DNA of 64,000 bases from Escherichia phage vB_EcoM_G2469, in sequence record MK327934.1; one strand, given 5' to 3'. A program made the position numbers and the translations under genes. Shown in pieces: positions 2,860 to 51,764 of the stretch. The notes below the pieces were generated by a model. It saw nothing but the letters and a program-made list of their open reading frames with translations. It ran no database searches and was not told the DNA's origin. Numbering within the stretch: position 1 is the first letter of the stretch; every line of letters starts with the position of its first letter.

Positions 2860-5185
<2,326 letters not shown>

Positions 5186-7307: not shown

Positions 7308-7799
7308 ATGTTTGTAGATGACGTAACTCGCGCCTTCGAATCTGGTGATTTCGCTCGCCCTAACCTGTTCGAAGTAGAAATCTCTTATCTTGGGCAAAAC
7401 TTTAGCTTCCAGTGTCGTGCTACGGCTCTTCCTGCTGCGATCGTTGAAAAGGTTCCTGTTTCTTATATGAACCGTAAAATTAACGTGGCCGGTGATCGTA
7501 CATTCGATGATTGGACTATTACAGTAATGAACGATGATGCTCATAGCATTCGTCAGAAATTTGTTGATTGGCAAGGTATTGCAGCAGGACAAGGTAATGA
7601 AATTACCGGTGGTAAACCTGCTGAATATAAAAAGTCTGCTATCGTTCGTCAATTTGCTCGTGATGCTAAAACGGTCACTAAAGAAGTTGAAATTGTCGGC
7701 TTGTGGCCTACTAACGTTGGCGAAGTATCTCTTGACTGGGACAGCAATAACGAGATTGAAACGTTCGAAGTAACTCTTGCTCTTGATTGGTGGGAATAA
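7308..7799 (+). CDS. 19: tail tube protein gp19
   Basis: 163 aa, T4 gp19 length; MFVDDVTRAFESGDFARPNLFEVEISYLG...; late promoter upstream. Confidence 0.93.
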   Translation: MFVDDVTRAFESGDFARPNLFEVEISYLGQNFSFQCRATALPAAIVEKVPVSYMNRKINVAGDRTFDDWTITVMNDDAHSIRQKFVDWQGIAAGQGNEITGGKPAEYKKSAIVRQFARDAKTVTKEVEIVGLWPTNVGEVSLDWDSNNEIETFEVTLALDWWE

Positions 7800-7806
7800 T
7801 CTGGTT

Positions 7807-7820
7807 GGGGAGAAATCCCC
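7807..7820 (+). terminator. hairpin GGGGA-GAAA-UCCCC after gene 19
   Basis: GNRA tetraloop hairpin 8 nt after gene 19 stop. Confidence 0.45.
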
Positions 7821-7847
7821 AGCTTCCCGTGATGACGGAGAAGTCCA

Positions 7848-7855
7848 TATAAATA
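7848..7855 (+). promoter_or_regulatory. late promoter (TATAAATA) for gene 20
   Basis: Exact TATAAATA 29 nt upstream of gene 20 ATG. Confidence 0.7.
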
Positions 7856-7883
7856 TAACTATAATTCCCATTCGGAGAATACA

Positions 7884-9455
7884 ATGAAATTTAATATCTT
7901 AAGTTTGTTTGCTCCATGGGCAAAAATGGACGAACGTGATTACAAAGACCAAGAAAAAGAAAATTTAGAATCTATCACCACACCAAAATTAGACGATGGT
8001 GCTAAAGAATACGAAGTATCTGAAAATGAAGCACAGCAAACATATAATGCTATGTTTCAGAGAATGTTTGGTAGTCAAGAACCAGGGCTCAAATCAACCC
8101 GTGAACTAATCGATACGTATCGAAATTTGATGACGAACTATGAAGTGGATAATGCAGTCTCTGAAATAGTTTCCGATGCTATCGTATATGAAGATGATAC
8201 AGAAGTCGTTTCTATAAATTTAGACAACACAAAATTTAGTCCAAATATAAAATCAATGATGTTGGATGAATTTAACGAAGTGTTGAATCATTTATCTTTC
8301 CAACGTAAAGGTTCAGACCATTTTAGGCGTTGGTATGTGGATTCTCGAATTTTCTTCCATAAAATTATTGACCCTAAACGCCCTAAAGAAGGTATTAAAG
8401 AGCTTCGTCGTTTAGACCCACGTCAAGTTCAATATGTCCGTGAAGTTATTACAACCACTGAAGCCGGTGTTAAAATAGTCAAGGGTTATAAAGAATATTT
8501 CATTTATGACACATCACACGAATCTTATGCTTGTGATGGTCGCATATATGAAGCGGGCACAAAAATAAAAATCCCTAAAGCCGCGATTGTTTACGCCCAT
8601 TCTGGTTTAGTTGATTGTTGTGGTAAAAATATCATTGGTTATTTGCATCGGGCTATTAAGCCAGCGAACCAATTAAAACTTCTTGAAGATGCCGTCGTAA
8701 TTTATCGTATTACTCGTGCTCCCGATCGTCGTGTATGGTACGTTGATACAGGTAATATGCCTTCAAGAAAAGCAGCAGAACATATGCAACATGTTATGAA
8801 TACGATGAAAAACCGTATTGCATATGATGCTACTACAGGCAAGATTAAAAACCAACAGCATATTATGTCGATGACCGAAGATTATTGGTTACAACGACGT
8901 GATGGTAAAGCAGTAACAGAAGTTGATACATTACCAGGTGCAGATAATACCGGAAATATGGAAGATGTACGTTGGTTCCGTAATGCGCTTTATATGGCTT
9001 TACGTATTCCTATTACCCGTATTCCAAGTGACCAAGGTGGTATACAGTTTGATGCTGGTACTTCTATTACACGAGATGAATTATCATTTGGTAAATTTAT
9101 TCGTGAGCTGCAACATAAATTTGAAGAGATATTCCTAGACCCGCTTAAAACTAATTTAATTCTTAAAGGAATTATTACAGAAGATGAGTGGAATGATGAA
9201 ATAAATAATATTAAGATAAAATTTCATCGGGATAGTTATTTCTCGGAATTAAAGGATGCTGAGATTCTGGAGCGTCGCATTAATATGCTTCAGATGGCCG
9301 AACCATTTATTGGTAAATATATTTCTCACAGAACAGCTATGAAAGATATTCTTCAGATGTCTGACGAGGAAATTGAACAAGAGGCTAAGCAAATTGAAGA
9401 AGAGTCGAAAGAGGCTCGTTTCCAAGACCCCGACCAAGAACAAGAGGATTTTTAA
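7884..9455 (+). CDS. 20: portal vertex protein gp20
   Basis: 523 aa; [18 protein letters not shown]... and C-terminus ...[14 protein letters not shown] match T4 gp20. Confidence 0.95.
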
Positions 9456-36499: not shown

Positions 36500-36762
36500 T
36501 ATAAATTCTCTTTAAATGAAAATGCAGGACTTATTGACATTGCCTGCGCAAGCCCTCAAGGGGAACATAGGTTTTGGATATTTAACGACAGGATAACCAT
36601 AAACCCGTCATCATACCAACCACGACTTAGACAGATAACCTTTTTCTGACGCGTGATAGTACAAAATACATTCAAGAGGTACACCGTAAAACTGCCGGGG
36701 ACTTAAAACTATAATGATTCGCAAATCATTAATCAGACAGTTCGACGGCTCCTCGATTTAAC

Positions 36763-37011
36763 TTACTTTAGGGTAATAACAAAATGACGTACTGCTTTAC
36801 GAGCTGCAGAAGCCAAAGGCTTAGCATATTTCAGTTCATCTTTTGCTTCCAGTTCAGAGGCCAAAGCTGCCTGGACCGGGTTCAGATGTTTGAAATATCG
36901 CAGGATTTCAAGAGCTTCGGCTTCAACATCGATAGATGCGCCATAGTTTTCGTGACCATTATTCCATGCGTTACGTTGCAGTTCAAGAGCGTGTTGTAAT
37001 TGTTTAATCAT
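36763..37011 (-). CDS. rIII: lysis inhibition accessory protein rIII
   Basis: 82 aa as in T4 rIII; position next to gene 31. Confidence 0.8.
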   Translation of the reverse strand: MIKQLQHALELQRNAWNNGHENYGASIDVEAEALEILRYFKHLNPVQAALASELEAKDELKYAKPLASAARKAVRHFVITLK

Positions 37012-37126
37012 TTTAAATTCTCAATTCGAGATAATATTTAGTAGCCACGTTCGTCTGAATTTCACCTTCTTTCGACAAGTCTCTCAGTTGTAGGCTACCG
37101 CTTAGAAGAGTGTTCTCTTCATATAG

Positions 37127-37134
37127 TTATTTAT
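37127..37134 (-). promoter_or_regulatory. late promoter (TATAAATA on - strand) upstream of rIII
   Basis: Reverse complement of plus TATTTATA in the 31-rIII intergenic region. Confidence 0.55.
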
Positions 37135-37135
37135 A

Positions 37136-37468
37136 TCACTTATAAAGACACGGAATAGCTTTATAATGGCATGTTACGAATTTCTGTTTAATTTCTTTAG
37201 GTTGTTTAAGTCCCAAAGCCACAAATGGATGTGGAACATTTCGAATTTGTCCAACTGGTAGTGGAGTCAAATCACCGACTTCAACAAAACCTTCAGGAAC
37301 ATCAGGACCTACAGAATGAACTACACATAGTTCAGGAACTTCACCTTGAACACGTTTACCAATCACAAGTCCTGATTCGGTAACTTCTTCATCACCTGCT
37401 TGAGCGGGTTCAGAAACCAGAATGACATATTCACCAACAGCACGAATTGGGAGTTGTACTTCAGACAT
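37136..37468 (-). CDS. 31: head assembly co-chaperonin gp31 (GroES-like)
   Basis: 110 aa; [34 protein letters not shown]...[15 protein letters not shown] matches T4 gp31. Confidence 0.95.
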
Positions 37469-37525
37469 CTTATTTCCTTGTTGTTTGACGATAGATTAAT
37501 AATACCATACTATTCGTAAAGCATA

Positions 37526-37834
37526 TTACATAAGAAGCAAACGTTCTACCGGAGTACCATCAACCGAAATTACTTTATCAAGGCGGAAAGAACGCCACTG
37601 ACCTAACTTGGTATCGAATGCTCGAACTGATTCACGAGGTTCAGAACGAACTTCTGTTGCCGGATTGTTATTTTCATATTTGACTTCAAGTTCATCGCGA
37701 GAAGCAAACATAGTGCGTACCTCACCGTTAGCCTTTTCAAATACAACACAATGAACGCCTACAGACAGAATAGTTTTAATACGTTCACGAAGAACCATAG
37801 TTTCTTGTTCAGTTAAAATCATATTATTCACCAC
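37526..37834 (-). CDS. hypothetical protein (31.1/31.2 position)
   Basis: 102-aa ORF between cd and 31. Confidence 0.55.
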   Translation of the reverse strand: MVNNMILTEQETMVLRERIKTILSVGVHCVVFEKANGEVRTMFASRDELEVKYENNNPATEVRSEPRESVRAFDTKLGQWRSFRLDKVISVDGTPVERLLLM

Positions 37835-38405
37835 AAAAGTTTCGGATTTGTTCCCAATTCAGAGAACGAAGATTATTACGAGAGTACTGAATTACTTCAA
37901 TGCCGGCTTGTTTTAGAATGTCTGCCCAATTTTCAGGAGATCTGTCATATAATTCTGCGTATACAACCTTTTTAATACCTGACTGCGTAATAGCTTTAGT
38001 GCAATCAGGACATGGAGAAAGCGTCGTATACAACGTAGCACCTTCAATAGAATTACCTTTACGAGCTGCAAACAAAATTGCATTCAATTCAGCATGGATT
38101 TCGTTATTAGCAGACCATGCACTATGAGCGGCCCGATGTTCTTTAGCCAAAACAAAATTATCCACCCGTCCAAATGCTGTAGTGCCTTCTTTATGCCCAG
38201 CAACGATGACCGGGCTTGGTTTATTCTTCAACCAACCGTTTTCGGATGCATGTTCGCAACAGTTTGTACCACCTGAAGGAGAGCCATTATACCCTGTAGA
38301 AATAATGCGTCCATCTTTTTCAATGACGGCGCCAACTTTCCATGAACAACATTTTGATTCTTGAGAAATCAGATAAGCAATCTGAAGATATGTGCTAGCT
38401 TTCAT
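37824..38405 (-). CDS. cd: dCMP deaminase
   Basis: 193 aa; zinc-binding motifs HAE and PCPDC; T4 cd length. Confidence 0.93.
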   Translation of the reverse strand: MKASTYLQIAYLISQESKCCSWKVGAVIEKDGRIISTGYNGSPSGGTNCCEHASENGWLKNKPSPVIVAGHKEGTTAFGRVDNFVLAKEHRAAHSAWSANNEIHAELNAILFAARKGNSIEGATLYTTLSPCPDCTKAITQSGIKKVVYAELYDRSPENWADILKQAGIEVIQYSRNNLRSLNWEQIRNFCGE

Positions 38406-39397
38406 TATTGAACCTTATTAATATAAGTTAACAGCTCTTTAGTTTGTTCCCAACTGATGCACGCATCGGTAATGGAAACGCCATAGGACATATTATCAGA
38501 AATTTTTTGATTTCCTTCATGTAGGAATGATTCTATCATAATTCCTTTGACCAAATCATTAGCTGCTAAATTTTTACCAATACCAATTTGATTGCTATAA
38601 TGCCCAGCAGCGTTTGCATGGCTACAGTCAACCATTACATAATGATTCATACCTACTGCACTTGCTTTGTTAGAAGCTTCTTGAATATCAGAAGAATGAT
38701 AGTTCGGGCCGTTGGTCCCGCCACGCAATACGATATGCGTATTCTGATTACCTTCAGCTTCAACAATGCCTACAGTACCATCGACGTCCATACCCATATA
38801 CCGATGAGGCCTGGCGGCACTATACATCGCGTCTGTAGCTACTTTAATAGAACCATTGGTTGCGTTCTTGAAGCCTACGCACATCGGTAGACCTGAAGCA
38901 ATTTCACGATGTGTCTGACTTTCAGTCGTACGGGCGCCAATAGCAACCCATGAGAAAATACCAGAAAGATACTTAATCGTGAATGGGTCTAATACTTCAG
39001 TTGCTAATGGAAGTCCCATACGTAGAAGTTTACGACACAATGTTCGTGCAACTATAAGACCGTGGTTCATATCAAAACTTCCGTCAAGATATGGATCATT
39101 TACAAGACCTTTCCAACCTACGGTAGTTCGAGGCTTTTCAAAATAAACGCGCATCACTAACAGAACATTAGGAAGACGAGTTTGAAGTTCAGCCAGACGT
39201 TTGCCGTATTCAACAGCAGCAATAGGGTCATGAATTGAACAAGGACCTACAACAATAAGTTTGCGTGGGTCTTCACCGTTCATAATCGAATTAACTTGTT
39301 CGCGATGAGAAGCCACTTGTGATGCGTAAGCTTCCGACAAAGGAATAATCTCAGCCAGTTCTTTTGGAGAAATAAGTTTTCTGACGACAGGTAACAT
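38405..39397 (-). CDS. 3-deoxy-D-arabino-heptulosonate 7-phosphate (DAHP) synthase, class I (AroG/AroF/AroH-like)
   Basis: 330 aa; blocks LIVVGPCSIHDP, VMRVYFEKPRTTVGWKGL.NDP, AIGARTTESQ.HRE.ASGL, GFKN.T.GSIKVA, IVLRGG, ESFLHEGNQ, GVSITDACI.WE align with E. coli AroG (recalled); stop overlaps cd start (TAATG). Confidence 0.9.
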   Translation of the reverse strand: MLPVVRKLISPKELAEIIPLSEAYASQVASHREQVNSIMNGEDPRKLIVVGPCSIHDPIAAVEYGKRLAELQTRLPNVLLVMRVYFEKPRTTVGWKGLVNDPYLDGSFDMNHGLIVARTLCRKLLRMGLPLATEVLDPFTIKYLSGIFSWVAIGARTTESQTHREIASGLPMCVGFKNATNGSIKVATDAMYSAARPHRYMGMDVDGTVGIVEAEGNQNTHIVLRGGTNGPNYHSSDIQEASNKASAVGMNHYVMVDCSHANAAGHYSNQIGIGKNLAANDLVKGIMIESFLHEGNQKISDNMSYGVSITDACISWEQTKELLTYINKVQ

Positions 39398-39517
39398 AAC
39401 AATCCTTAGGAGATATAAACAGATTCTGATTCAACAATACCTTTAACCGGATTAGACAGGCTAAGTTGGTAGTGCTCAGACTTATGACCATTCTCGATAG
39501 TAATGAGATAGCTCTCA

Positions 39518-39754
39518 TTATAGTGTTCCATATACTCGAGTTGCTTCAACAAGACCATCACTGCCTAATTTAAGATTAGTAATTTGGTCACCATCTTTAG
39601 GATTAACGATTATGAGAAAAGAACGTGGAGATTCTTGAATAACTCGTAATGTTGCATCTTGGAAACGTTCAGACACTTTATTGATGAGTGCTTGAGCAAA
39701 TTCTTTTACTTTAATCTGAAATTCGTGTACTGTAATTGGGTTTTCACTTAGCAT
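39518..39754 (-). CDS. hypothetical early protein
   Basis: 78-aa ORF with SD and early promoter upstream; a further 40-codon ORF overlaps its 3' end. Confidence 0.5.
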   Translation of the reverse strand: MLSENPITVHEFQIKVKEFAQALINKVSERFQDATLRVIQESPRSFLIIVNPKDGDQITNLKLGSDGLVEATRVYGTL

Positions 39755-39783
39755 TTCTATTTCCTCATTTGTTGGTAGAGTTA

Positions 39784-39811
39784 TAGTATCACAACTCCAC
39801 CATGTTGTAAA
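39784..39811 (-). promoter_or_regulatory. early promoter (GTTTAC-N16-TACTAT)
   Basis: Upstream of ORF 39518..39754. Confidence 0.5.
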
Positions 39812-39814
39812 CCA

Positions 39815-40090
39815 TTAAATTGCTTTGCATTCAATTTTTTGTGTACCGAAATTGATATCACATTGGATAACTAAATCGCCGTCAAGATCAAATACCACGA
39901 TGACGTGTGCAGATCCAGGGAGAAGAGTAATAGCAATAGAATCTACTTGGTCTGGGAGCAAAGCATTAAGTACATGAGTTACTTGAGCATGAACTCTGAG
40001 TTCGGCTGCATTATCAAGCACTTCAAACATATTATTAGCAATAATCTGACTGAAGACTACCTTTACAATTTCAGAATAAGTTGGGAACAT
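39815..40090 (-). CDS. hypothetical early protein
   Basis: 91-aa ORF in cd-pseT interval. Confidence 0.5.
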   Translation of the reverse strand: MFPTYSEIVKVVFSQIIANNMFEVLDNAAELRVHAQVTHVLNALLPDQVDSIAITLLPGSAHVIVVFDLDGDLVIQCDINFGTQKIECKAI

Positions 40091-40097
40091 AATTACC

Positions 40098-40322
40098 TCA
40101 GTGCACAGTATTTACTTTAACTCGAACAACAAATCGCTCGGTTGGTTCACCTACAGGAACAAACTCTACATGATATTCACCTTTGTAACGAGTATTCAGA
40201 TCATTACGAATTCCTGCTAGTTTGTTGATTAATGTAGGACTCATATTAAGTCCCACTAGTTTACGAAGCATTTTGTATGCTTCATCTTCGATTTCATGAT
40301 GTTTATCGTACATAGTTTTCAT
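40098..40322 (-). CDS. hypothetical early protein
   Basis: 74-aa ORF in cd-pseT interval. Confidence 0.5.
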   Translation of the reverse strand: MKTMYDKHHEIEDEAYKMLRKLVGLNMSPTLINKLAGIRNDLNTRYKGEYHVEFVPVGEPTERFVVRVKVNTVH

Positions 40323-40493
40323 TTAACCATTCAATTGCCTGGTCGACGTTATCAAATATACCACCGTCCAAACGTTCTTCATGCTCATAGTCCAGCACAT
40401 CAATACCGAACTGTCCATTTACTAAAGGCCAGGCTACAAACAAATATTCTTTATGCTGTTCGATGGCCTCAATAACTTCATATAATCGTTTCA

Positions 40494-40494
<1 letters not shown>
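40303..40494 (-). CDS. hypothetical early protein
   Basis: 63-aa acidic ORF directly downstream of pseT. Confidence 0.5.
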
Positions 40495-41580
<1,086 letters not shown>

Positions 41581-41581
<1 letters not shown>

Positions 41582-41880
41582 TATTTTATTCCTAAGAAAG
41601 TTTCAAGAATACGAATGTTATGCTCGCGCCGGTCTTTATTAATTTCAGCAACGTTTTTATTAATTGACGTACTTCTAACGTTTGAAGAAATAAATTTAAT
41701 CATATGACTTTTGAGTTGTTGCAAATCCAACCCTTTTTCTTTAGCAGCTTTACGAAGAGCTTTACCTGCTTCATCTAGTGCCTTTGCTGTATCTTTGTCA
41801 TAATTGACAAGTGTCATTCCACGACAGATATCAATATACTCATCAGACCGTTTGATGTAATTCTCTAGTAATGTTTTCAT
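41581..41880 (-). CDS. hypothetical protein
   Basis: 99-aa basic ORF with early promoter upstream. Confidence 0.55.
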
Positions 41881-41908
41881 TTAGATTTCCTCAATTATCC
41901 ATAGGAGC

Positions 41909-41938
41909 ATTATACTCTGCTCCCACGAGTTTGTAAAC
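41909..41938 (-). promoter_or_regulatory. early promoter (GTTTAC-N18-TATAAT)
   Basis: Upstream of ORF 41581..41880. Confidence 0.5.
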
Positions 41939-42162
41939 TATTTTACTAAAGATTCAATATACTCATGAAGAGCTTTAGTCGCTACTGCCCACTTATTCTG
42001 ATATTCATTTTTCAGATTAGCACGAGACTGAACTAACAAGCGGTCATTAGTTGGAGGCAAAGATTCTAATCGTTGAATCTGGCGCCCATAAATCATAGCC
42101 GCCATTTCAGATTCATAGATAAGCCCTTTAAGGTATTCATGTTGTTCTTTAGTCATTGACAT
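41938..42162 (-). CDS. hypothetical protein
   Basis: 74-aa ORF overlapping the upstream ORF by 10 nt. Confidence 0.5.
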   Translation of the reverse strand: MSMTKEQHEYLKGLIYESEMAAMIYGRQIQRLESLPPTNDRLLVQSRANLKNEYQNKWAVATKALHEYIESLVK

Positions 42163-44964: not shown

Positions 44965-45467
44965 TTAGAAATATTTTTTGTATGAATTGATTACATTTTG
45001 GTCTACATCATTATCAATTTGTGCGACAAGATAAGAACTGATTTCAACTTCTTGTGGGGCTGCTTGAACCAAATCAGAGTTCAAATACTCACGAATCCAT
45101 GGAATAGGATGACGAGTTGATACGTCTTTAAGAGGACATGGCAGACCACAACTACGCATACGAGACACGGTAAGATAATCCACAAATTCACTTAGGATTT
45201 TAACATTTAGACCTGGAAGAGCACCATCTTTAAACAAGTGTTCAGCCCATTCTTTTTCTTGAGCGTTAACTTCCATGAAAATATCAACTGCTTCTTGTTC
45301 ACACTCTTGAGCAATTTTGACCCATTCATCACCGTCTTCGCCATCTTGTAAAGCACGAATAATATATTGAGTGCCCTTGAGGTGGAGCTGTTCATCACGA
45401 GCAATGAACTTCATAATCTTGGCATTACCTTCCATGATTTCCATATTCTTGTGGAAGTTAAAGGTAC
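44965..45467 (-). CDS. nrdB: ribonucleotide reductase small subunit NrdB, exon 2
   Basis: Encodes (C)TFNFHKNMEIMEGNAKIMKFIARDEQLHLKGTQ... matching R2 region after FYVSFAC; exon starts after intron-terminal G. Confidence 0.8.
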
Positions 45468-46558
45468 CGTTATGTTCGATTGAGCTCGCTAATTCTCAAC
45501 CCGTTCTCTTATGAACTGCTACATATTACTATGCAGACCAGACTATATCACAATCCCAGAGGGATTCTCCCCATTTCGAGTCGCTTGACCCTACGTCCGA
45601 AGACTAGTCGTTGAACCTTGCTTTGCAATTGTCGCCGTGCCATCGTTTATATGTTGATGGTGATAAATCTTTCTTATCACAATATGGACAATTCAATTGA
45701 ATTCTATTTGGATTTAATTTACATCTGTCATTATGTTTTAGATAAAATCCAGGACCTTTACCAATGTGACCGCAGAAATCACATGTGATTTCTTTTTGTG
45801 CAGGATGGGTCCCGTTCTTAACCATTTCTAATGTTTTTGCTGATGTTCTTTTCTTATGGTCTTCTGACAAGAAATGATGTGAACCGTCATTTACCCGTTT
45901 TGATTGAGTTTCTGACTGCATTTTACCACCGCAAAATACATGAGTACCTTCTTTTATAGCTGCAATATTGCGTTCTTTAACTTTTGCAATATGCTCAGCT
46001 TGTTGAAAATTATGTATACCTAATGCAACTCTATTTAAATTAGATTTACGCTGTATTTCACCGTCTAAAAGATGAAATGTACCATTTTCTATCTTAGATT
46101 TAATAGAGGCAATATTTTTAGCTCGTACTTCAGGGATATTAAAAATCTGGATTTCTCTAGATTTTGCGGCTTTAGAAGCTAATTCAGAAATTTCTTCAGG
46201 AGAATATTTCATTCTAAGCTTTATAGCATGACAAGCCTGGTAATCTTTTTGAGCTAAATGTATATCATAATGTTCCTGTATAGAAAGGCACATCAAATTA
46301 TCTAAATCATTATTTTCACGGTTACCGTCTTTATGATGGATTTCGTATGTTCTTCCATCAGAATCTTTAGGTATAGGTCCGTTAGCATCTATCCAAATTT
46401 TTCTATAGTTCAATTGTGCATCCTCTTAAAAGTATAATCATATTTATATTATACTAATTAAAGGTGCAAGCAAAACCTTGGCTGCTAGTTTTCCTATAAA
46501 GGACTTTCCAGCAATTAAAGGAGTTTTCGATAAACGTTACCGTTTAAAGGCGCATTTT
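45468..46558 (-). mobile_element. group I self-splicing intron in nrdB carrying a homing endonuclease ORF
   Basis: 1091 nt between inferred splice sites (exon 1 ends ...UUUGCGU, intron ends ...AUAACG); restores the conserved FAC codon and frame; boundaries are inferred. Confidence 0.75.
45604..46413 (-). CDS. intron-encoded HNH homing endonuclease I-TevIII (full length)
   Basis: 269 aa inside nrdB intron; HNH-like EIHHKDGNRENNDLDNL; C-terminal Cys-rich zinc-finger-like region. Confidence 0.85.
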   Translation of the reverse strand: MNYRKIWIDANGPIPKDSDGRTYEIHHKDGNRENNDLDNLMCLSIQEHYDIHLAQKDYQACHAIKLRMKYSPEEISELASKAAKSREIQIFNIPEVRAKNIASIKSKIENGTFHLLDGEIQRKSNLNRVALGIHNFQQAEHIAKVKERNIAAIKEGTHVFCGGKMQSETQSKRVNDGSHHFLSEDHKKRTSAKTLEMVKNGTHPAQKEITCDFCGHIGKGPGFYLKHNDRCKLNPNRIQLNCPYCDKKDLSPSTYKRWHGDNCKARFND

Positions 46559-47234
46559 ACGCAAAAGATACATAAAAACGAATAGCTTCTAAGGCATTAA
46601 TAACGTGCAAACAGAGGTAAAGAGATTTCATTAGCTCACGCTTCCAATATGTCTCATGCTCAATAGCATCTTCAATAACGTCTTCGTCTGCATTAATTTC
46701 TTTTTGGTATTCGATATCAGCTTTAGCGTTTTCCCAATAACGAGCTTTAACCAGAACATCATCATAATATCGTCCGATAGATTCGGCACGCTTCATAATA
46801 GCTTCATCTAATACAATCTCATCAAACACCTTCGATGGATCTGTATAAAGATTTCGCATAATATGAGTATATGAACGAGAGTGAATAGTTTCACTGAAAG
46901 TCCATGTAGCAACCCATGTATCTAATGAAGGGTCTGAAAGCAATGACATAAGTACCGCAGATGGTGCTCTACCTTGGATAGAATCTAATAATGATTGATA
47001 CTTAAGGTTGTTGGTAAAGATGTCCTGTTGGAACTGTGGAAGCTTATTAAACTGGGCCGAATCCAACATCAAGTTTACTTCCTCGGGACGCCAAAAGAAC
47101 GAGAGCTGCTTTTCGATAAGCTCTTCAAAAACTTTATGACGCTGAATATCATACCGTGCGAGGCCAAGACCAGAACCAAAGAACATCGGTTCATTCAAAA
47201 CATCGACTTGTTGTGTGTTAAAAACTGTACTCAT
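46559..47234 (-). CDS. nrdB: ribonucleotide reductase small subunit NrdB, exon 1
   Basis: From MSTVFNTQ... to ...ALEAIRFYVSFA; diiron/tyrosyl radical R2 motifs; in-frame stop lies in the intron. Confidence 0.85.
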
Positions 47235-47288
47235 TATATTTCTCACTTAGTTATTAACTCATCCATGAGTAAATTATAATAAAAAGTC

Positions 47289-50199: not shown

Positions 50200-51215
50200 C
50201 ATTATGTTCAGATAAGGTCGTTAATCTTATCCCGGAATTATATCCAGCTGCATGTCACCATGCAGAGCAGACTATATCTCCAACTTGTTAAAGCAAGTTG
50301 TCTATCGTTTCGAGTCACTTGACCCTACTCCCTAAAGGGATAGTCGTTAGGCATTTATGTAGAACCAATTCCACTTATCAGATTTTACACGGTAAGTAAC
50401 TAATCCTGATGAAATTTCAAAATGTCTAGCCGCATCGGCTGCACATTCAAAAATAATCCCATCGCATGAAATCTTTTTGATGTTAGCTGGCTTTTTGCCT
50501 TTCATCTTTTCAGATAGTTTAGTTTTAGTTTTTTCTGAATGTTTGTGATTAAAGAACGGGTTATTTTCACCTGAACGTTTTCGGCACTTTCCACAAGTAT
50601 CGGCCGAAGATGGTATGCGAACACCGCATTTACAAAACTTGTGGTTTTCTGGATTCCATCGGCCATTTTTACTTCCGTGTTTACCATAAAGAGCTTTCCG
50701 ACCATCAGGACCAAGCTTAAGCATCTTAACTTTAACAGTTTCAGCTCGTTTCTTAGCAATTTCTTCTTTTAATGGATGATTTGAAAGCACATCGCCAAAA
50801 GACGCATCAGCAATATTATATCCATTAATTTTAGAATTTAGCTCTTTAATCCAAAAATTTTCTCGTTCAATAATCAAATCTTTCTCATACGGAATTTCTT
50901 CCAGTACAGAGCATTCAAAAACATTACCATGTTTATTAAAAGACCTTTGAAATTTTATAGAAGAGTGAACACCGTTTTCAAGGTCTTTAAAATGTCTCTT
51001 CCATCTTTTCTCAAAATCTTTAGCACTTCCAACATACACTTTACCGTTTAAAGTGTTTTTAATCTGATAAATTCCGCTTTTCATAAACACCTCTTTTTAT
51101 ATAGAAGTATTTATTAAAGGGTAGTCCTACAATTTAGCACGGGATTGTCTACTAGAGAGGTCCCCCGTTTAGATAGATTACAAGTATAAGTCACCTTATA
51201 CCTAGGCCTAAATTA
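50200..51215 (-). mobile_element. group I self-splicing intron in td carrying I-TevI
   Basis: 1016 nt, same length as T4 td intron; 5' end UAAUUAGGCCUAGGUAUAAGGUGACUUAUACUUGUAAUCUAUCUAAACGGGG... almost identical to T4 td intron as recalled. Confidence 0.9.
50347..51084 (-). CDS. intron-encoded GIY-YIG homing endonuclease I-TevI
   Basis: 245 aa from MKSGIYQIKNTLNGKVYVGSAKDFEKRWKRHFKDLE...; GIY-YIG motif; matches T4 I-TevI. Confidence 0.93.
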   Translation of the reverse strand: MKSGIYQIKNTLNGKVYVGSAKDFEKRWKRHFKDLENGVHSSIKFQRSFNKHGNVFECSVLEEIPYEKDLIIERENFWIKELNSKINGYNIADASFGDVLSNHPLKEEIAKKRAETVKVKMLKLGPDGRKALYGKHGSKNGRWNPENHKFCKCGVRIPSSADTCGKCRKRSGENNPFFNHKHSEKTKTKLSEKMKGKKPANIKKISCDGIIFECAADAARHFEISSGLVTYRVKSDKWNWFYINA

Positions 51216-51764
51216 ACCTAAGAAAACATCTACACTGCGTTGATACCATTGTAAATCAAGATGTCCATTACGCACATTAAATTGATAGAACATATGACAA
51301 GGAGGAAGAGCCATTTGGTCAATTTCGGCTGGGTTCCATGCAGAAACTATTTGACGACGATCATTAGGAAGAGCTTTAATGCGGTCGATAGTTTTGACCA
51401 ATTGGTCTACACCACCAAAATCACGCCATTGCTTACCATAAATAGGACCAAGTTCGCCGCTATGATATCCAAGGTCTTTTGCCTGATTTTCATAGTTGTC
51501 GTCCCAAATAGTTTTACCTTGAATAAGACTACCATGAGTACGAATACGCAAATCATTAACATTGGTAGAACCAGACATGAACCACAGTAACTCGGCAATA
51601 CAAGCTTTCCATGCTAATTTCTTAGTTGTTACTGCAGGAAATCCTTTAGTAAGGTCCCAACGTAATTTAGTTCCGAACAGGGCAATAGTGCCGGTACCTG
51701 TACGGTCGTCTGTTTCGTAGCCATTTTCTAAGATATCTTTAATCAGGTATTGGTATTGTTTCAT
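51216..51764 (-). CDS. td: thymidylate synthase Td, exon 1
   Basis: 183 codons MKQYQYLIKDILENGYETDDRTGTGT...PPCHMFYQF...QRSVDVFLG then in-frame UAA in intron. Confidence 0.93.

Follow-up and report, generated by a model that had tools for sequence, protein, structure and literature searches.

The window analysed here, a 64,000-nt stretch of the genome of Escherichia phage vB_EcoM_G2469, encodes a full-length type I-alpha DAHP synthase of the AroF/G/H type (EC 2.5.1.54). Our preferred reading, held with moderate confidence and drawn from sequence and structure comparison, is that this is an active, early-transcribed and feedback-free enzyme from an old lineage confined to T4-like phages, which would sustain shikimate flux during infection. 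The phage is a Mosigvirus, an RB69-like coliphage, and the window is 97-98% identical over 5.5 kb to Mosigvirus genomes. The gene itself is already known, being a catalogued phage auxiliary metabolic gene (PHROG 5045).

Identity and genomic setting of the gene

The DAHP synthase reading frame is the only ORF at its position (Table 1), has no in-frame ATG, GTG or TTG between its start and the previous upstream stop in the ORF listing, and carries a Shine-Dalgarno-like motif 5 nt ahead of its ATG. It matched Pfam DAHP_synth_1 (PF00793; E=2e-75, 253.5 bits, cut-off 25.5), the NCBIfam aroFGH equivalog TIGR00034 (428.4 bits, cut-off 173.2) and NF009395 (PRK12755; 456.7 bits, cut-off 343), and scored under the cut-offs of the AroG model NF006723 (365 bits, cut-off 568) and the AroH model NF009396 (386 bits, cut-off 463). 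It also matched PHROG 5045 (phospho-2-dehydro-3-deoxyheptonate aldolase; 601.9 bits), with residues 1-330 aligned to profile positions 8-337 of 341, and the E. coli AroF structure 6AGM was matched over residues 7-327 (E=1e-104). Identity to E. coli AroF, AroG and AroH is 51, 47 and 44%, respectively. The original prediction of a class I DAHP synthase along the whole length of the ORF is thus borne out by database similarity far beyond chance.

Table 1 Features of the DAHP synthase locus
Feature	Coordinates	Strand	Sequence or motif	Basis or remark
Type I-alpha DAHP synthase CDS	38405..39397	minus	ATG start	330 aa; end includes TAA 38407-38405
cd (dCMP deaminase), downstream, translationally abutting the DAHP synthase gene	37824..38405	minus		Pfam dCMP_cyt_deam_1 (E=2e-26); annotation of relatives
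cd.2 homologue (DUF7320), upstream neighbour	39518..39754	minus		Pfam DUF7320 (E=1.5e-35); 'similar to Cd.2' in PhAPEC2
pseT	40494-41393			beyond four small ORFs from the DAHP synthase gene
Leader of 120 nt between cd.2 and the DAHP synthase start	39398..39517	minus	RBS AAGGA (39407-39403)	
Left copy of 19-nt direct repeat, degenerate relic of cd.2-stop/cd-start junction	39503..39521	minus	ATAATGAGAGCTATCTCAT	repeat search
Right copy of 19-nt direct repeat, functional DAHP synthase-stop/cd-start junction	38390..38408	minus	ATAATGAAAGCTAGCACAT	
Sigma-70-type promoter-like site between cd.3 and cd.2	39783..39811	minus	TTTACA-17-TACTAT with TG	scan match (scan not enriched over shuffles)

The stop codon of the gene shares a single base, position 38405, with the ATG of cd (38405-38403) in the context 'caaTAATGaaa', the overlap that had been predicted. 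Placement between cd and pseT also holds and can be refined, the gene lying precisely between cd and cd.2. In T4 this slot is occupied by cd.1, and the whole pseT-cd interval holds only cd.1-cd.5 with no DAHP synthase gene, as the original prediction had stated; in RB69 the slot is empty. We rejected the idea that the gene is a strict replacement of cd.1, because Serratia phage X20 has both and RB69 has neither.

Two copies of a 19-nt direct repeat, identical at 16 of 19 positions and spaced 1113 bp apart, flank the 1.1-kb cassette. The left copy aligns with RB69's single cd.2/cd junction, and in carrier genomes the BLAST match from the cd.2 side reaches into the start of cd by about 15 nt. 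We caution that the repeat is not significant on length alone and that chance repeats of like quality occur elsewhere in the region; it gains meaning solely from lining up with both ends of the cassette and with the single RB69 junction. The 120-nt leader with its cd-start relic was seen only in the Mosigvirus form, and the leaders of the Kanagawavirus and Marfavirus homologues span only 9-43 nt, so the longer leader is a peculiarity of the Mosigvirus form.

Neither a promoter nor a terminator stood out convincingly when the leader was scanned, and the scan overall showed no enrichment over shuffles. The promoter-like site further upstream aligns with GGTTTAC...GATAtTAT in T4 and RB69, and in the T4 record the gap separating cd.3 from cd.2 carries an annotated early promoter; by position the site is homologous to this T4 promoter, Pe133295, and it is likely to give rise to a cd.2-DAHP synthase-cd transcript. 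The translational overlap with cd, the Shine-Dalgarno motif, the lack of a terminator and the early-promoter homologue are all consistent with early expression. Scans of the window for tRNAs and Rfam families returned nothing bearing on the gene.

Fold and active site

An AlphaFold2 model of the protein (pLDDT 93.1, pTM 0.92) was matched by Foldseek against the PDB to AroG (1GG1_A; TM 0.95, rmsd 1.7 Å) and to the Neisseria meningitidis DAH7PS 4HSO (TM 0.95), with rmsd values of 1.5-1.7 Å across the two. In common with E. coli AroF (6AGM) and AroG (1KFL/1GG1), the phage enzyme has the (beta/alpha)8 barrel, the metal ligands, the PEP residues, the KPRT motif and the beta6a/6b hairpin, whose strands span residues 198-203 and 209-214 in the model. 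It differs from them in an N-terminus shorter by 8-9 residues, a C-terminus shorter by about 4-9 residues and two small deletions near the C-terminus.

Every residue expected of a working active site was found in the alignment with AroG. The metal ligands C53, H260, E289 and D311 correspond to AroG Cys61, His268, Glu302 and Asp326, and the PEP-binding residues R83, K88, G154-A155-R156, K177 and R225 to AroG R92, K97, G163-A164-R165, K186 and R234. The erythrose-4-phosphate-binding KPRT motif, in which KDO8P synthases differ from DAHP synthases, is present as K88-P89-R90-T91 (AroG K97-P98-R99-T100). These metal, PEP and erythrose-4-phosphate residues are kept at 14 of 14 positions in the phage protein and in all 24 other representatives of its clade.

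A rebuilt inhibitor site

The phage enzymes part from bacterial ones at the site where aromatic amino acids bind. In an unbiased scan of 329 aligned columns comparing 25 phage-clade with 98 bacterial sequences (the 95 best-scoring cluster representatives plus AroF, AroG and AroH), only five columns separated the two sets: Q151K, D155G, S180P, F209Y and T223A (AroG numbering). The first four belong to the inhibitor site as defined in the literature (Fisher p=7e-6, rising to about 4e-4 without D155 on the list, which was drawn from a review after some of the phage/bacterial differences were already known), and T223A falls on strand beta6b of the regulatory hairpin. A sixth position, P150I, comes close to separating the sets, with Ile in 24/25 phage and Pro in 88/98 bacterial sequences. 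In the phage protein the residues at AroG P150, Q151, D155, S180, F209 and T223 are I141, K142, G146, P171, Y200 and A214; across the clade the last five are K in 24, G in 24 and P, Y and A in all 25 sequences. Among the bacterial sequences the contact residues are close to invariant (Q151 98/98, D155 96/98, S180 97/98, F209 98/98), and Q151 and S180 are both substituted in 25/25 phage sequences. The original prediction had guessed that the enzyme was 'possibly feedback-insensitive', a guess now backed by residue-level evidence.

The N-terminus points the same way. Its helices are present in the phage protein; the first 8-9 residues (AroG 1-9, including D6 and D7) are absent clade-wide, and only 9-13 residues precede AroG position 20 in the phage clade versus 17-54 in bacteria. 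We take the N-terminal tail to be what caps the bound inhibitor in the AroG-Phe structure, and the extreme N-terminus reportedly has a role in the inhibition of DAHP synthases. A literature search on the AroF substitution N8K gave nothing. Given the inhibitor-site substitutions together with the missing tail, the phage enzyme is probably feedback-insensitive.

Several of the altered positions are those changed in deregulated laboratory enzymes (AroG P150L, S180F, F209A/S and D146N; AroF P148L; yeast ARO4 Q166K and K229L). AroG P150L is fully feedback-resistant and S180F and F209A/S are resistant, while the side chains of Q151 and S180 contact the main chain of the inhibitor in AroG and AroF alike (PMC9529685). 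K142 of the phage protein aligns without gaps to AroG Q151 and yeast Aro4 Q166, so that Q151K reproduces the residue change of the feedback-resistant yeast allele in use, ARO4-Q166K (PMC7513737; PMC5879953), and P150I is nearly AroG P150L. The parallel is incomplete: the phage has S to P where S to F was tested, F to Y where F to A/S was tested and P to I where P to L was tested, only Q to K matching a tested change (in the yeast orthologue), and no test of S to P or F to Y at the inhibitor site was found in the literature consulted. Unlike AroG D146N and AroF P148L, the phage enzyme is unaltered at D146 and at the equivalent of AroF P148. What distinguishes it from the laboratory alleles is that 5-6 pocket changes and an N-terminal deletion are combined and evolutionarily fixed.

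An ordinary feedback-regulated DAHP synthase, by which the phage would merely add enzyme dose after host shut-off and whose substitutions would shift only the preference among Phe, Tyr and Trp, is an unlikely explanation of these data. The protein is nearest overall to the Tyr-sensitive AroF, both in the 6AGM match and in the neighbour-joining (NJ) tree, and it retains AroF-like P147 and G211 as well as D146, L179 and the hairpin (AroG numbering), as a regulated enzyme might. However, Q151 and S180, near-invariant in bacteria and substituted throughout the phage clade, contact the backbone common to Phe, Tyr and Trp, which argues against a mere switch of specificity, and Q to K at the position equivalent to 151 confers feedback resistance in yeast Aro4. 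Another unlikely alternative is that the pocket has been re-tuned rather than disabled, so that another effector (for example chorismate, prephenate, a metabolite of the nucleotide pathway or a phage protein) ties flux to infection. The substitute residues are nearly invariant even though identity within the clade falls to 56% (entropy at pocket positions 0.22 versus 1.01 elsewhere in the protein), and the new Lys and Tyr bring polar groups. Such strong conservation is unlike the simple loss of a site, and the pocket may still bind a ligand or be structurally needed. Against re-tuning, no result points to a candidate ligand, the tail that presumably covers the inhibitor in AroG is missing, and the altered positions fall at what we take to be the AroG tight-dimer interface, where structural constraint alone could account for the conservation. 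The fuller version, in which I141, K142, G146, P171, Y200 and A214 would bind a new effector as a switch tying shikimate entry to infection, and in which linkage to cd, td and frd would reflect chorismate supply for p-aminobenzoate and folate, seems to us improbable.

Distribution, selection and origin

A DAHP synthase at least 95% identical to this one occurs at the same locus in about 140 GenBank phage genomes, in many of which it is annotated as such. The proteins of the Mosigvirus phages PhAPEC2 (gp185, YP_009056797.1), JS09, APCEc01, mogra (mogra_57) and Shigella phage JK45 are 97.6-99.4% identical to it; their genes share its strand, its place between cd and cd.2 and the overlap of its stop codon with the cd start. 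Of the 4-5 residues at which it differs from PhAPEC2 and mogra, none is at a catalytic or pocket position. Because a near-identical annotated gene thus occupies this position in T4 relatives and belongs to a named PHROG, the novelty hoped for in the original prediction does not hold. Beyond Mosigvirus, homologues lie in the pseT-cd interval of Kanagawavirus (PEi20, PEi26, Entb_45), Marfavirus (F48), Winklervirus (X20) and Bragavirus (PM2); these forms, which are 56-77% identical to the enzyme analysed here, share with Mosigvirus the short-form clade, the pseT-cd setting, the catalytic residues and the pocket signature. They differ in local detail, X20 having a Cd.1 homologue and PM2 two small ORFs between the DAHP synthase gene and cd. 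The Kanagawavirus KLB31 enzyme has been treated as an auxiliary metabolic gene (PMC11845039), and in the literature we found passing mentions (PMC8022965, PMC11845039) and no functional study of a phage DAHP synthase.

The phage DAHP synthases form a monophyletic, phage-only clade apart from all bacterial sequences (100/100 NJ bootstraps), with AroF as its sister and with identity falling to 56% within it. Its basal members, P0020 and P0022, are on T4-like contigs, the former with the order pseT-DAHP synthase-cd. The clade is under purifying selection with dN/dS of about 0.15 (0.16 for the unsaturated pair Entb_45/PEi26; 0.14-0.24 between genera). The DAHP synthase of Aeromonas phage HJ05 (H10PHJ05_6, annotated as hypothetical) is an independent acquisition: it is a type I-alpha enzyme of 387 aa with 14/14 catalytic residues and an extended N-terminus, shows only 37% identity, is encoded by a 79-kb non-T4-like phage and bears P150A, Q151H, D155P, S180P and F209V.

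A search for a recent bacterial donor singled out none, since the top bacterial matches are just 50-55% identical and scattered over Planctomycetota, Kiritimatiellota-like bacteria (Pontiella) and Pseudomonadales. Two low-identity 'phage' matches were set aside: the contig labelled 'Acinetobacter phage MD-2021a' is bacterial, with cobS and cobT adjoining, and the gut contig MT837466 is unverified.

That the gene is host DNA, whether misassembled or derived from E. coli aroF captured very recently, we regard as practically excluded. A 98%-identical NCBI cluster representative is named '[Escherichia coli]', but it sits on a contig of phage size (170,875 bp). The gene is only 51% identical to AroF, has a GC content of 0.41 against 0.52 for aroF (0.52-0.53 for aroF/G/H), overlaps cd by 1 nt, recurs at this site in about 140 phages sequenced independently and finds its best bacterial matches in unrelated phyla; as predicted, it is embedded in an early-strand phage operon rather than being contamination. 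Less remote, though still very unlikely, is a passenger role, in which the cassette recombines among T4-like phages without benefit or its product mainly drains host PEP and erythrose-4-phosphate. The gene is polymorphic for presence within one genus and bracketed by the direct repeat. In two Mosigvirus comparisons the cassette diverges by 0.5-0.6% at the nucleotide level versus up to 8% in its neighbours, as if recently spread, and non-synonymous changes predominate among the 5-6 differences within the genus (4-5 N against 1 S, numbers too few to test and at which dN/dS is uninformative). Yet over the long term purifying selection has been strong, every clade member keeps all 14 catalytic residues, the position is kept in at least five genera, and among the window ORFs and their Pfam matches neither a homing endonuclease nor any other mobility gene was linked to the cassette.

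Proposed role and significance

On our preferred reading of an active, unregulated enzyme, the gene would share an early transcript with cd.2 and cd, started at the conserved early promoter that precedes cd.2, and its metal-dependent product would condense PEP and erythrose-4-phosphate to DAHP. With the active site intact and the inhibitor pocket rebuilt by loss of the N-terminal tail and fixation of the six substitutions, Phe, Tyr and Trp would most likely be unable to shut the enzyme off, and in the infected cell carbon would go on flowing into the shikimate pathway regardless of how large the host pools of aromatic amino acids are. The resulting chorismate would supply aromatic amino acids and possibly chorismate-derived cofactors such as folate. 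Phage proteins of the window are Tyr-rich, 36 of them containing 4.05% Tyr and 9.6% F+Y+W, compared with about 2.8% and 8.3% in the E. coli proteome. Any benefit must be conditional, since T4, RB69 and about seven other Mosigvirus phages thrive without the gene.

The presence of a catalogued gene here adds nothing new; its possible value lies in the regulation hypothesis, namely that the evolution of T4-like phages may have fixed changes of the kinds chosen in metabolic engineering to free DAHP synthase from regulation. Natural pairs of carriers and non-carriers (mogra and moha; this phage and RB69) make the fitness question directly testable; JK36 is a further relative in which the site is empty. 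If confirmed, the enzyme would be a naturally optimised, feedback-resistant DAHP synthase for making aromatic compounds, and would represent a lytic phage overriding end-product control of host biosynthesis, beyond the mere addition of an enzyme.

Identity and setting of the phage DAHP synthase

The predicted product matches Pfam DAHP_synth_1 (E = 2e-75) and clears the cut-offs of the NCBIfam aroFGH equivalog TIGR00034 (428 bits, cut-off 173) and of subfamily PRK12755 (457 bits, cut-off 343), while scoring under the isozyme-specific AroG and AroH cut-offs. The closest solved structure is the E. coli Tyr-sensitive AroF (6AGM; E = 1e-104, residues 7–327), followed by the N. meningitidis and E. 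coli AroG enzymes, and identity is 51% to AroF, 47% to AroG and 44% to AroH. An AlphaFold2 model (pLDDT 93, pTM 0.92) superposes on AroG 1GG1 with a TM of 0.95 and an rmsd of 1.7 Å and keeps the two-stranded β6a/6b insertion that type Iα enzymes typically have. All 14 metal-, PEP- and E4P-binding residues checked are conserved (AroG numbering, used hereafter unless marked as phage: C61, R92, K97, P98, R99, T100, G163, A164, R165, K186, R234, H268, E302 and D326), including the catalytic metal ligands C61, H268, E302 and D326 for which alignment to AroG had been proposed. Family models, identities, fold and catalytic residues together support the class I DAHP synthase (DAHPS) assignment of the original prediction.

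The placement of the gene was likewise borne out. The 330-aa ORF starts with ATG, an AAGGA ribosome-binding motif lies 5 nt ahead of it, and a search further upstream for an alternative in-frame start gave none. The last base of the TAA stop is also the first of the cd ATG (caaTAATGaaa), the overlap that had been noted; cd (dCMP deaminase; Pfam E = 2e-26) is the next gene, and upstream, past four small ORFs, lies pseT (Pfam HAD_PNKP and AAA_33), which puts DAHPS between cd and pseT as proposed. A promoter-like site lines up with an annotated T4 early promoter located between cd.3 and cd.2, and no terminator intervenes; from this arrangement, early co-transcription of cd.2, DAHPS and cd is likely.

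Features of the window discussed in the text
Feature	Position	Strand	Remarks
DAHPS ORF	38405–39397	-	330 aa
19-nt direct repeat (family D3)	38390–38408 and 39503–39521		16/19 identical; brackets 1113-bp block
55-aa mechanical ORF	39351–39518	-	opens MRAISLL
Promoter-like site	39811–39783		
nrdB, two pieces	46557–47246 and 44965–45444	-	whole interval 44965–47246
HNH_3 endonuclease ORF	45604–46413	-	between nrdB pieces
Group I intron match, nrdB	45519–45759	-	sub-threshold; 34 bits, E = 7e-6; between nrdB pieces
td, interrupted	50248–51764	-	thymidylate synthase
td exon 1	51213–51764	-	Thymidylat_synt profile positions 1–175 of 266
I-TevI-like GIY-YIG homing endonuclease ORF	50347–51090	-	after td exon 1
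Group I intron match, td	50248–50478	-	sub-threshold; Rfam, 36 bits, E = 1.5e-6

The hope that the gene was new did not survive comparison with other phages. The surrounding 5.5 kb is 97–98% identical to many genomes of Mosigvirus (RB69-like coliphages), including mogra, PhAPEC2, JK45, APCEc01 and others, and tblastn against 50,697 phage records found a full-length homologue in 212, of which 139 are at least 95% identical, every one an Escherichia or Shigella Mosigvirus. In the PhAPEC2 RefSeq record the gene is gp185, flanked by cd and a Cd.2 homologue as in the window, and mogra has the same placement. The family is PHROG 5045 (602 bits; category 'moron, auxiliary metabolic gene and host takeover'), the phiC120 genome paper notes that ORF 64 contains a DAHP synthetase domain (PMC8022965), and a 2025 paper treats the Kanagawavirus KLB31 homologue as an auxiliary metabolic gene, its account of the role being a hypothesis of aromatic amino-acid supply (PMC11845039). 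Our literature search found no functional study of a phage DAHPS gene. Since a near-identical gene is annotated at the same position in these T4 relatives, it is already known, through annotation, in many of them.

An accessory cassette of long residence in T4-like phages

In T4 the slot between cd and cd.2 is occupied by cd.1 (112 aa); RB69, the type Mosigvirus, has no gene there, its cd.2 stop overlapping the cd start. In an alignment of the window, RB69 and T4, what sets the window apart from RB69 is a block of 1113 bp, comprising a 120-nt leader and the DAHPS ORF. The repeat that brackets the block is the cd.2-stop/cd-start junction itself, its left copy a decayed cd-start relic ('ATGAGAGCTATCTCAT' vs 'ATGAAAGCTAGCACAT'); RB69 carries a single copy, which fits either a junction-duplicating insertion or a precise, later loss of the segment between the repeats. 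Empty sites occur in a minority of genomes (RB69, ECO111 5-P, JK36, JK42, moha, mar005P1 and the more distant WG01/QL01/dhaeg group). Thus most, but not all, Mosigvirus carry DAHPS, which makes it an accessory cassette. Straight after cd.2, a 55-aa mechanical ORF opens at the relic TAATG, and its beginning mimics that of cd (MKASTYL). Rather than a gene, this is probably what cassette insertion left of the original start of cd. Separately, in the RB69 reference (NC_004928, region 7600–8252) cd is annotated as 169 aa. On translation, a local frame disturbance puts PSWY* for QAGIEVIQYSR before the normal C-terminal 'NNLRSLNWEQIRNFCGE' resumes in frame; either the 2003 record contains a sequencing error or cd is truncated in RB69.

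The pseT...DAHPS...cd neighbourhood recurs in Klebsiella F48 (Marfavirus), Proteus PM2 (Bragavirus), Serratia X20 (Winklervirus) and, within Kanagawavirus, Edwardsiella PEi26 and Enterobacter Entb_45. X20 also has a Cd.1 homologue (30% identity, E = 2e-10), placed between DAHPS and cd, so the site of DAHPS is between cd.2 and cd.1/cd and the gene is not strictly a replacement for cd.1. When 5.8 billion proteins were searched, the matches showed a sharp break: the first 24 cluster representatives are 319–343 aa long and at least 56% identical, and under ~55% identity there are only standard bacterial enzymes of 341–385 aa from unrelated phyla, from which no bacterial donor could be named. The short forms are monophyletic in 100 of 100 NJ bootstraps, and the two sequences that branch off first come from T4-like contigs, one of which shows alc-spanin-pseT-DAHPS-cd synteny. 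GC content is 0.41 for DAHPS, 0.40 for cd and 0.41 for pseT, against 0.52–0.53 for E. coli aroF, aroG and aroH. A phage-only clade, T4-like basal contigs and phage-like GC indicate an old resident of T4-like phages rather than a recent host capture. The dN/dS ratio, 0.16 between Entb_45 and PEi26 (dS 0.62) and 0.14–0.24 between genera, is a clear sequence signature of purifying selection.

Two database records carry doubtful labels. The cluster representative that is 98% identical (P0001) is named '3-deoxy-7-phosphoheptulonate synthase [Escherichia coli]' by NCBI, yet its contig measures 170,875 bp and is presumably the genome of a Mosigvirus that was assembled from an E. coli isolate and deposited under that name. 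CAKLQH020000056.1 ('Acinetobacter phage MD-2021a') has aroF_2 (140–1324) next to cobS, cobT and alpha-ribazole phosphatase genes and looks like bacterial chromosome mislabelled as phage.

Divergence of window positions 36500–42000 from PhAPEC2 and mogra is strongly mosaic gene by gene (from PhAPEC2: cd.2 8.4%, rIII 6.4%, pseT 4.7%, DAHPS 0.6%, gene 31 0.3%), a pattern indicating that Mosigvirus phages recombine often. In both comparisons the cassette ranks with the least diverged parts (0.5–0.6% vs up to 8.4%), which would fit recent recombinational spread within the genus. Elsewhere, td is interrupted in the window and uninterrupted (861 bp) in mogra, the closest relative; nrdB, here in two pieces, is intact in mogra, with a free-standing homing endonuclease between nrdB and nrdA.

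Clade-wide remodelling of the inhibitor site

Every member of the phage clade (25 sequences) begins 8–9 residues later than AroG or AroF, with 9–13 residues ahead of AroG position 20 compared with 17–54 in 98 bacterial sequences, and the segment with AroG D6 and D7 is absent. Across 329 aligned columns, only five have one residue in at least 90% of the phage clade and a different one in at least 90% of the bacterial sequences: Q151K, D155G, S180P, F209Y and T223A. Of these, four fall in the inhibitor-binding site as given by a review on feedback-resistant DAHP synthases, PMC9529685 (Fisher p = 7e-6; D155 joined the list after that review was read, and without it the count is three of five, p ~4e-4); the fifth, T223, is in strand β6b of the regulatory hairpin. 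P150 falls just below threshold (Ile in 24/25 phage, Pro in 88/98 bacterial sequences). In AroG, P150L confers complete feedback resistance, S180F and F209A/S are feedback-resistant, and the Q151 and S180 side chains bind the inhibitor main chain, as they do in AroF (PMC9529685). In a gapless 95-residue alignment, phage K142 corresponds to AroG Q151 and yeast Aro4 Q166, and ARO4-Q166K is a standard feedback-resistant yeast allele (PMC7513737; PMC5879953); the substitution fixed in the phage lineage is thus the one by which the yeast enzyme is deregulated. Alongside this change the lineage has a near-copy of the classical AroG P150L and, unlike AroG, lacks the Ser180 hydroxyl and the N-terminal tail.

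The chief reservation concerns conservation, which is higher in the rebuilt pocket than in the remaining protein (entropy 0.22 vs 1.01); this could reflect structural constraint at the dimer interface or re-tuning to another ligand. A 387-aa 'hypothetical protein' of Aeromonas phage HJ05 (79 kb, not T4-like; 3899–5062) is a distant type Iα DAHP synthase and appears to be an independent phage acquisition. It keeps 14/14 catalytic residues yet has P150A, Q151H, D155P, S180P and F209V, a single case whose sequence points in the same direction as the altered site of the T4-like clade.

Proposed role during infection

The best-supported mechanism, as read from sequence, is an early-expressed, active and feedback-insensitive DAHP synthase that, heedless of Phe, Tyr and Trp, would keep PEP and E4P flowing towards chorismate while infection proceeds. 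The benefit is likely aromatic amino-acid supply. The 36 confident window proteins contain 9.6% F+Y+W and 4.05% Tyr; the E. coli proteome has ~8.3% and ~2.8%, respectively. The constant linkage to cd, td and frd makes a contribution to folate via p-aminobenzoate conceivable. Since RB69, T4 and several Mosigvirus are without the gene, any advantage must be conditional. We did not find inhibitor-site remodelling in phage DAHPS stated in the searchable literature; the hypothesis that a whole phage clade mimics laboratory feedback-resistant alleles is concrete and could be tested cheaply.
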